From the NCBI GenBank assembly GCA_001871075.1, contig MNUP01000147.1, positions 1 through 36,459 on the forward strand: 36,459 nucleotides of DNA, in the 5' to 3' direction. The notes beneath the pieces were generated by a model. That model did not search any database. It had not been told where the DNA came from and was given only the letters and a program-made list of their open reading frames with translations. Made by a program: the position numbers and the translations under genes. Below, piece by piece: positions 2,960 to 3,365 of this stretch; position 1 is the first letter of the stretch, and each line of letters begins with the position of its first letter. Source of the DNA: Candidatus Desantisbacteria bacterium CG1_02_49_89. Lineage in GTDB: Bacteria > Desantisbacteria > UBA1551.

Positions 2960-3033
2960 TTGCGGGGGTCCGATTTGAACGGACGACCTTTGGGTTATGA
3001 GCCCAACGAGCTACCAGGCTGCTCCACCCCGCT
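2960..3033 (-). tRNA. tRNA-fMet (CAT, initiator)
   Basis: AGCGGGG..TTGGG-CTCATAA-CCCAA..GTTCAAATC..CCCCGCA-A: 1:72 mismatch and three consecutive G-C pairs in the anticodon stem; CCA not encoded. Confidence 0.95.
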
Positions 3034-3273
3034 GTCAATCAATCTTTCTATTGCTTTGTGGCTTTTCCATCTCTTGATCTGTTTTTCACGCTTTAAAGCC
3101 TCTGTTTTATTATTGTATGATTCCGTCCATACAACCTGCCAGGGACCGCGCCTTCTGGTGGAAGAAGACTTGTTACAGAAGTGCTCTTCAAATCTTCTTA
3201 CAGGATCGCTGCTGCATCCTATATAGAATTTTCCGCTGCTCTGGCTACGCAGTATATATATGGAATATTCCAT
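2995..3273 (-). CDS. Small GIY-YIG nuclease (UPF0213-like) whose 3' end overlaps tRNA-fMet
   Basis: YSIYIL...FYIG...RRFEEH...EALKREKQIK, with catalytic-type Arg and Glu present; last codons (SGVEQPGSSLGS*) are tRNA sequence. Confidence 0.85.
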   Translation of the reverse strand: MEYSIYILRSQSSGKFYIGCSSDPVRRFEEHFCNKSSSTRRRGPWQVVWTESYNNKTEALKREKQIKRWKSHKAIERLIDSGVEQPGSSLGS

Positions 3274-3365
3274 TGAAAGGACGACCTCCCCGATGGGCTA
3301 TGCCATCGGGACGAGCTACCAGGCTGCTCCACCCCGCTGTCAATCAATCTTTCTATTGCTTTGTG
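3272..3365 (-). pseudogene. Degenerate duplicate of tRNA-fMet plus upstream flank
   Basis: 3311-3365 is identical to 3006-3060 (55 bp). Anticodon arm replaced by CCCGATGG-CATAGC-CCATCGGG; the T-arm remnant (AGGTCGTCCTTTCAA) runs into the nuclease ATG. Confidence 0.85.

Follow-up and report, generated by a model that had tools for sequence, protein, structure and literature searches.

How does a small nuclease gene come to be joined, with no nucleotide between them, to an initiator transfer RNA (tRNA) gene, and to start inside a broken copy of the same tRNA? This question is raised by a locus in Candidatus Desantisbacteria bacterium CG1_02_49_89, on contig MNUP01000147.1 of assembly GCA_001871075.1, the whole stretch of which (36,459 nucleotides, nt) is called the window here. 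The locus contains a single-domain GIY-YIG nuclease gene of about 80 codons, abutting a partial tRNA copy in which a GC-rich hairpin stands in for the anticodon arm; an intact tRNA is kept downstream, and upstream lies the disabled copy, together with the tail that remains of an older nuclease gene. We consider it probable that this is a tRNA-embedded mini-nuclease cassette, in which an Ssn-like nuclease would nick hairpins, the repeats would recombine and the gene would be expressed by read-through. That the cassette is selfish and mobile is what we infer from the comparisons given below.

The comparisons were made with the window's own genome assembly (G000; 150 contigs, 2.48 Mb, 93.5% complete, repeat-rich, with 44 tRNAs and one transfer-messenger RNA (tmRNA) gene), with 40 relatives, among which a single genome (G001, 87% complete) belongs to the same order and the other 39 are related at domain level only, and with homologue loci from genomes and metagenomes. 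L-numbers denote homologue loci and C-numbers denote contigs of G000. The features of the cassette locus, which are on the minus strand and given in window coordinates, are the following.

2960..3033, minus strand: intact initiator-type tRNA-Met(CAU) (ARAGORN; Rfam tRNA model 58.1 bits, gathering score 29)
2995..3273, minus strand: open reading frame (ORF) of the GIY-YIG mini-nuclease, 92 amino acids (aa) (Pfam PF01541, E=1.3e-18, 67.5 bits, cut-off 22.6)
3006..3070, minus strand: downstream copy of a 65-nt direct repeat, consisting of the ORF tail and tRNA bases 1-28 (repeat comparison)
3273..3288, minus strand: variable region, 5' T-stem and T-loop remnant of the broken tRNA copy (15-nt repeat)
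3289..3310, palindromic, no strand assigned: 22-nt palindrome with an 8-bp stem and a 6-nt loop, in place of the anticodon arm (sequence reading and folding)
3311..3338, minus strand: bases 1-28 (the 5' part) of the broken copy of tRNA-fMet, with the same sequence as in the intact gene
3339..3375, minus strand: degenerate tail of an older nuclease copy, LKNHKAIERLID (tblastn)

The conserved nuclease domain comprises residues 1-80 and ends with ...KAIERLID at base 3034, the next codon starting at base 1 of the tRNA. Residues 81-92 are encoded by the 5' half of the tRNA, and the ORF ends with ...TCA TAA within the anticodon loop CTCATAA. Its ATG is located in the T-loop remnant TTCAATG of the broken copy, 11 nt after a GGAGG that also belongs to this remnant. 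The original prediction had described this 92-aa ORF with its start in a T-loop remnant and its stop in an anticodon loop, and the description was confirmed by ARAGORN, Pfam and the sequence itself. The remnant is recognisable as a 15-nt repeat (3273-3287 versus 2975-2989, in the variable/T-arm region) with 93% identity to the intact tRNA. The palindrome at 3310..3289, with the stem CCCGATGG/CCATCGGG, sits 16 nt upstream of the ORF and forms a hairpin on either strand when folded as DNA. Its pattern was matched twice in the window and never in 100 shuffles, and it is related to a genome-wide family of CCCGATG..CATCGGG hairpins.

The direct repeat (3006-3070 versus 3311-3375) is 65 nt long, with 94% identity and a period of 305 nt. 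Its core (3006-3060 = 3311-3365) is 55 nt long and 100% identical, being made up of 27 nt of the ORF tail (codons H72-D80) and bases 1-28 of the tRNA; the nuclease tail contributes 27-37 nt of the repeat. The perfect 55-bp repeat reported in the original prediction, with its period and its content of last codons and 28 nt of tRNA, was thus found again, in a slightly longer form. The suggestion that the upstream copy runs into the tail of an older nuclease also held, as a tblastn match at 3374..3312 showed 90% identity to nuclease residues 69-89 (E=1.5e-5), and two other assemblies carry a true nuclease tail at the position of the degenerate one.

Bacterial initiator tRNAs are marked by an anticodon stem with three G:C pairs, a mismatch at 1:72 and an A11:U24 pair. 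On reading the sequence, the tRNA at 3033..2960 shows all three, with a GGG/CCC stem, A1 opposite A72 and A11:T24. G000 has three tRNA-CAU genes, and this one alone is of initiator type, the other two being devoid of these hallmarks; a second initiator tRNA gene outside the 93.5%-complete assembly is possible.

A partial tRNA duplicate beside an intact tRNA is the classic footprint of integrase islands, and the locus resembles these islands in that a partial duplicate was left and a working tRNA regenerated; the tRNA-Leu of the locus has a duplicated 3' end as well. The repeat could accordingly be the old attachment site of an eroded integrase-borne island, with the nuclease gene as cargo. However, the ORF list of the window shows no integrase within or near the repeats and only the nuclease ORF in the 305-nt unit, the duplicated part is the 5' and not the 3' portion of the tRNA, joined to the nuclease's own tail, and this compact layout is seen again at numerous tRNAs of many phyla, all of which makes such an island a very improbable origin. 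Beyond the two tRNAs, Rfam gave nothing at a credible score in the window. The broken tRNA copy, folded as single-stranded DNA, had no significant energy excess (z = -1.3 and -1.2). Two further candidates were set aside: the ORF at 3374..3219, which spans the older tail and the broken copy, had no Pfam match and was treated as non-coding, and region 3376-3440 was rejected as a gutted older nuclease gene, a single 13-nt match (3405-3417 versus 3255-3267) being too weak.

The site was compared with that of G001, for which two neighbouring features are needed.

3637..3720, minus strand: tRNA-Leu(UAA), the first of an ancestral tRNA-Leu/tRNA-fMet pair (ARAGORN, Rfam)
2467..2937, minus strand: gene of a cyclic-nucleotide-binding protein, in the downstream flank (Pfam PF00027, E=8e-23)

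In G001, 13 nt separate tRNA-Leu(UAA) from tRNA-fMet, after which comes the gene of a 156-aa cyclic-nucleotide-binding protein, which is 66% identical over 156/156 residues to the product of the window gene 2937..2467; neither a nuclease nor a pseudo-tRNA lies between the two tRNAs. In the window, 603 nt lie between the same two tRNAs. A search of G001 (87% complete) with the window protein found no nuclease of the tRNA-linked clade described below. An empty allele, which the original prediction had proposed to seek in relatives, is therefore present, and the simplest reading would be that the 603 nt, with at least one unit, were inserted between tRNA-Leu and the initiator tRNA-fMet in the G000 lineage. 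The 40 genomes include no closer relative for a finer comparison of the empty site. The protein IspG has its best matches in Candidatus Omnitrophota genomes, at 51-56%, a weak hint as to the phylum.

Variation at the locus itself was seen in four metagenome loci that carry it (L093, L094, L095 and L097). L093 matches the window without any difference over 2774 nt, and L094 is colinear with it from the repeat to the tRNA, by way of the broken copy and the nuclease gene, differing at 1 position in 1465 nt; at its start, L094 has 20 nt that are identical to the true nuclease tail (3080..3061) and not to the degenerate tail (3385..3366). These records bear on the suspicion that the arrangement arose from mis-joined reads, which is suggested by the fragmentation of the assembly into 150 contigs and by repeats that break contigs. 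The two repeat copies differ internally, however, L093 reproduces the locus exactly, and L094 does so almost exactly under a different record-name prefix, so that an assembly artefact is extremely improbable.

L095 and L097, which come from one record set, have their first 127 nt in common (the 3' part of the nuclease gene and the repeat) and then diverge, a length that fits a common largest k-mer of assemblers. After it, L095 continues into the intact tRNA and the downstream gene, and L097 into the hairpin copy, the first 20 nt of the nuclease gene and then a 170-nt repeat. The junction of nuclease tail, repeat and hairpin copy would imply a second tandem unit or an excised circle, either of which is expected to produce it. 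Between L095 and the window, the 4 mismatches are all confined to 25 nt of the nuclease tail, the remaining 1266 nt being free of them; by codon reading, three are synonymous and one is K64R. Their confinement to the nuclease tail indicates that the cassette has had a history different from that of its flanks, and one under constraint. The 170-nt repeat (L097:186-355) was observed in at least 45 copies in G000, many of them at contig ends (e.g. C120:10140-10309); it has terminal inverted repeats of about 15 nt, resembles a miniature inverted-repeat transposable element, splits the L097 nuclease copy after codon 7 and appears to break many G000 contigs.

The association with tRNA genes is not limited to this locus. 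G000 contains seven small GIY-YIG genes, and for five of them a tRNA on the same strand lies no more than 250 nt away (fMet, Cys, Pro-CGG, Ser-UGA and Ser-GGA), a position for which 44 tRNAs in 2.48 Mb would give, by simple arithmetic, a chance of about 0.7% per gene. Four of these five genes are accompanied by partial tRNA copies. The tRNA-Cys paralogue has its stop codon 7 nt before the tRNA and, upstream, a tRNA copy with two GC-rich inserts; in the tRNA-Pro paralogue, a 5' tRNA fragment and a hairpin follow the ORF; in the Ser-GGA paralogue, the gene is downstream of the tRNA, as a mirror image, and the ORF is followed by a repeat of the final 15 nt of that tRNA. Identity to the window protein is 29-41% for the G000 paralogues and, self-matches aside, 52% for the closest relative of all.

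Among homologues, a same-strand tRNA was found within 400 nt at 7 of 54 genome loci, and within 250 nt at 8 of 27 loci from related genomes and at 14 of 76 metagenome loci. When the metagenome loci were divided at 42% identity, a threshold picked after the data had been seen and which leaves 5 short fragment matches outside the split, 10/18 were tRNA-adjacent at or above it versus 4/53 below. Self-comparison of the tRNA-adjacent loci revealed direct repeats around the nuclease gene in 10/14 and 7/9 loci of two sets; where these repeats were read against the tRNA (e.g. L062, L063, L081, L011, L096, L108 and L109), they proved to be part-copies of the adjacent tRNA, often together with a hairpin. 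Whole units are duplicated in perfect tandem in a Saccharibacteria genome (L010:1450-2120; 325 nt, period 344) and in a Rikenella genome (L008:1090-1800; 372 nt, period 341). The layout of L103:760-1180 is a mirror image of that in the window: its protein, 48% identical and with the same MEYSIYIL start, is encoded downstream of a non-initiator tRNA-CAU and ends with ...LIDSVG in the D-arm of a partial tRNA-CAU copy, in which a CCGATG-type hairpin takes the place of the anticodon arm.

In a quick maximum-likelihood tree of 128 proteins and 99 columns, a split with a support of 95 in the Shimodaira-Hasegawa-like approximate likelihood ratio test (SH-aLRT) separates 36 rows, 26 of them tRNA-adjacent, from 92 rows, of which 2 are tRNA-adjacent. 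The smaller side holds the window protein and its four tRNA-linked paralogues, and at least 5 of its 10 non-adjacent rows have less than 250 nt of flank on one side. The tRNA label changes 9 times on the tree against a mean of 25.7 for shuffled labels, and none of 500 shuffles was as low, a measure inflated by near-copies. The flank survey and the tree split together support the expectation in the original prediction that homologues should be enriched next to tRNAs with partial copies. The two paralogues without a tRNA (on C47 and C55) fall on the 92-row side, each as sister to a G001 gene (SH-aLRT 98 and 99), and look vertically inherited, and no counterpart of the tRNA-linked paralogues was found in G001.

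One part of the original prediction is not supported as a design by this survey. The stop codon in the anticodon loop had been suggested as a possible built-in expression control, RNase P cutting the message before its stop, and a cut at tRNA base 1 would logically be able to leave a stop-less message here, in a genome that has a tmRNA gene. The conserved protein, however, ends at tRNA base 1. Where the nuclease gene precedes the tRNA (11 loci), the stop lies inside the tRNA in 4 (at +38, +23, +22 and +14 nt) and 5-205 nt before it in the other 7, so that RNase P control is not general. The stop within the tRNA is a by-product of the zero-nucleotide junction between nuclease and tRNA.

Hairpins and stray tRNA copies are themselves abundant in G000, in which 58 CCCGATG..CATCGGG and 63 CCCGCCA..TGGCGGG hairpins are nested in mosaics. 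Perfect CCCG..CGGG hairpins occur in the 250-nt flanks of 12/32 tRNA-adjacent homologue loci versus 16/110 others. The idea that the hairpin families are confined to genomes with tRNA-clade nucleases was dropped, G001 having such hairpins and lacking a detected member of that clade; the hairpins and the nucleases are accordingly not strictly coupled. A same-strand partial copy of at least 14 nt was found within 1 kb of 10 of the 44 tRNAs, compared with 46 of 2000 random segments. Some of the partial copies have no nuclease gene and lie beside the intact tRNAs Phe, Pro-UGG, Tyr, Ser-GCU, Pro-GGG and Met (C47:8830-9056 and 58869-59162; C88:35835-36030; C109:348-725; C117:14325-14458; C41:6185-6462); they may be relics of lost cassettes. 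At C55:13340-13800, a nuclease paralogue without a tRNA is bracketed by nested GTCATTGCGA...GAAGCAATCC hairpins, in an ssnA-like layout of hairpin, gene and hairpin.

These findings can also be read without mobility, as those of a resident nuclease which serves the host, is co-expressed with tRNA operons and, for example, polices recombination or incoming DNA as proposed for the SsnA of Neisseria, the flank duplications being due to the hairpin repeats. The deep divergence of the paralogues is in line with this, as is a sequence that looks to be under purifying selection (three synonymous changes and one K to R), and so are the hairpin families of G001 and the excess of partial copies near tRNAs, several of them with no nuclease gene. 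Such a resident would not, however, be expected to be patchy across phyla and absent from a same-order relative, to occur in whole-unit tandem duplications (L010 and L008), or to show unit-junction variants in near-identical strains with substitutions confined to the cassette; moreover, the only paralogues with orthologues in G001 are the two that are not linked to tRNAs. We regard the resident nuclease as unlikely.

The protein itself has the features of its superfamily. The catalytic residues of GIY-YIG nucleases are two Tyr, Arg, His and Glu, and residues Y6, Y17, G19, R27, H31, E63 and K67 are invariant across an alignment of 20 sequences. The AlphaFold model (mean predicted local distance difference test score, pLDDT, 84.5) has the order strand-strand-helix-strand-helix-helix, in which the beta-beta-alpha-beta-alpha GIY-YIG fold is present, and the 12 tRNA-encoded residues at the end form a low-confidence tail (pLDDT 57 and 53 in the last two blocks). 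Profile, catalytic residues and fold agree in placing it in the GIY-YIG nuclease superfamily, and from sequence and model it looks intact and functional. By Foldseek, the top matches were UPF0213 protein BH0048 and the nuclease domain of Slx1, ahead of the N-terminal domains of I-TevI and UvrC; among solved structures, the UPF0213 proteins BH0048 (1ZG2) and EF2693 (1YWL) come nearest both in sequence (E=6.8e-8 and 5.6e-5) and in fold. NCBIfam gave only sub-threshold matches, to a group I intron endonuclease model (23.5 bits versus a cut-off of 56). Pfam, the alignment and the model all show a catalytic domain alone, with no added DNA-binding domain.

The last point matters for another explanation, since the phage T4 homing endonuclease SegB has an added DNA-binding region. 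On this explanation the window gene is a classical free-standing homing endonuclease of the SegB kind, which would cut cassette-free duplex tRNA genes, for example in the T-loop, and be copied by break repair, the partial copies being scars. The locus fits in that the junction between broken copy and ORF lies in the T-loop and in that a conserved site is occupied in the window and empty in G001. SegB is a free-standing GIY-YIG homing endonuclease in a tRNA gene cluster, cuts duplex DNA and recognises a conserved T-loop motif (PMC2330249); a GIY-YIG gene among tRNA genes, a target tied to the T-loop and spread together with neighbouring tRNA sequence are likenesses to the window locus. However, SegB is a phage enzyme for which hairpin-plugged partial tRNA copies are not known to have been described, and the window protein, with nothing but a catalytic domain of about 80 residues, is nearer in sequence and fold to UPF0213 and Slx1 than to I-TevI. 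The intact target tRNA adjoins the gene, which would expose its own locus to cutting, and the partial copies are regular and hairpin-bearing, unlike random scars. Homing of this type is, in our view, quite unlikely.

The closest known family of the window nuclease is Ssn, which includes SsnA of Neisseria meningitidis (CDD cd10448) and is made up of single-domain GIY-YIG proteins of about 94 aa that cut only single-stranded DNA (Chenal et al. 2025, PMC11893778). Ssn proteins bind hairpin repeats (NTS/SRM) that flank their own genes, in a hairpin-gene-hairpin layout like that of an insertion sequence (PMC11893778). The window protein likewise has a single GIY-YIG domain and 92 aa (80 in the conserved domain), its gene is flanked by GC-rich hairpins with many copies in the genome, and the stems of the window genome share a TCCCG...CGGGA theme with the published NTS (PMC11893778). 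In contrast, the hairpin of the window is part of an incomplete tRNA copy and the gene lies directly against a tRNA, a type of molecule that the main text of PMC11893778 nowhere mentions. The window protein also falls outside the 92-row group that contains homologues from Devosia, a genus named in PMC11893778, and from Roseibium; the characterised SsnA is not among the rows of the tree. The published SRM pattern has no match in window positions 2400-4000, and the window hairpins were rejected as SRM, the motif not being enriched in G000.

A small nuclease gene with dispersed mosaic hairpin repeats also recalls repetitive extragenic palindromes and bacterial interspersed mosaic elements (REP/BIME) with their REP-associated tyrosine transposases (RAYT, IS200/IS605-like), a parallel drawn in the discussion of PMC11893778. 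These differ in that HUH transposases rejoin DNA, which GIY-YIG enzymes are not known to do. No description of tRNA-flanking bacterial mini GIY-YIG cassettes was found in the literature, subscription journals and the supplements of PMC11893778 aside.

The region upstream of the cassette has further features, one of which is relevant to expression.

3757..3784, minus strand: sigma-70-like consensus promoter TTGACA-16-TATAAT upstream of tRNA-Leu (12/12 matches)
3518..3539, minus strand: second copy of the tRNA-Leu 3' end (22-nt repeat, 95%; 17 nt exact, corresponding to tRNA positions 67-83)
3447..3520, minus strand: tRNA-trailer module, with an A/T-rich hairpin (3500-3520), a 17-nt CCCGATGTTACATCGGG hairpin (3477-3493) and a conserved tail of about 28 nt

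The promoter is the only strong promoter-like site on the minus strand within 2900-3800, and TTGACA-16-TATAAT is likewise found upstream of tRNA-Leu in G001. A 97-nt GC-rich insert (3540-3636) separates the intact tRNA-Leu from its second 3' end, and positions 3518-3636 resemble the footprint of a gene-less, mirror-image cassette. The 17-nt CCCGATGTTACATCGGG trailer hairpin is located 27-47 nt downstream of 10 of the 44 G000 tRNAs; it also occurs in G001, in G008 and beside tRNA-Val cassettes of the metagenome loci L100, L102 and L104. A T-arm-like string (GTTCGGGTCGGCTTC[A/G]AATCCCT) is present on the plus strand at 3596-3623 and near position 35341 of C88, on the strand opposite the tRNAs, and in C88 it adjoins the trailer hairpin.

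Returning to the tRNA-embedded cassette as the reading we favour, its working might be pictured as follows. The cassette would be transcribed by read-through from the tRNA-Leu promoter, and silencing it would cost the cell its essential initiator tRNA. The nuclease would act as Ssn enzymes do, binding the hairpin in single-stranded DNA and nicking nearby, and the breaks would be repaired by recombination between the tRNA-derived direct repeats. Such recombination would expand, contract, circularise or copy the 305-nt unit and might, rarely, seed it at another tRNA gene through sequences common to tRNAs. The original prediction had proposed a selfish unit of nuclease and tRNA segment that integrates or amplifies in the absence of an integrase and keeps a working tRNA; the empty site, the recurring tRNA link and flanks, the junctions that point to a second tandem unit or a circle, and the lack of an integrase speak for this, and the part concerning active movement is not matched by any recent hop.

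Several points weigh against the favoured reading. No recent transposition is seen, the window protein sharing 29-41% identity with the G000 paralogues and 52% with its nearest non-self relative. To our knowledge, GIY-YIG enzymes cut DNA and do not rejoin it, and any mobility would consequently depend on host recombination. The empty site is an order-level comparison, in which insertion in G000 is preferred to loss in G001 by parsimony with no outgroup. The junctions that suggest tandem units or circles are taken from short-read assemblies, in which repeats may have been resolved wrongly. The published SRM motif is no commoner in G000 (10 matches) than in 5 simulated genomes (9-15 matches). 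G001 holds 19 and 7 copies of the two hairpin families, and a tRNA-clade nuclease was not found there. The tree has only 99 columns, and many of its forks are unresolved.

A wider claim would be that these cassettes form a new class of integrase-free elements, which use tRNA pieces as portable homology arms and a hairpin tRNA mimic as single-strand recognition site, are secured in expression and retention by their place in an essential tRNA operon, and spread and multiply at tRNA genes across phyla through nuclease-triggered recombination; we put this forward tentatively and think it doubtful. Annotation pipelines now give such loci as a "GIY-YIG family protein" and stray tRNA fragments, and pairs of nuclease and hairpin-tRNA site could supply new sequence-specific tools for single-stranded DNA. 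If the cassette reading is true, tRNA genes would host very small selfish elements that have neither integrase nor transposase, and many of the partial tRNA genes of bacteria would be explained. The Ssn-type single-strand nucleases would gain a natural role and a natural target structure, and, in the organism studied here, the element would be hard to lose by virtue of its position between a promoter and the only initiator tRNA.

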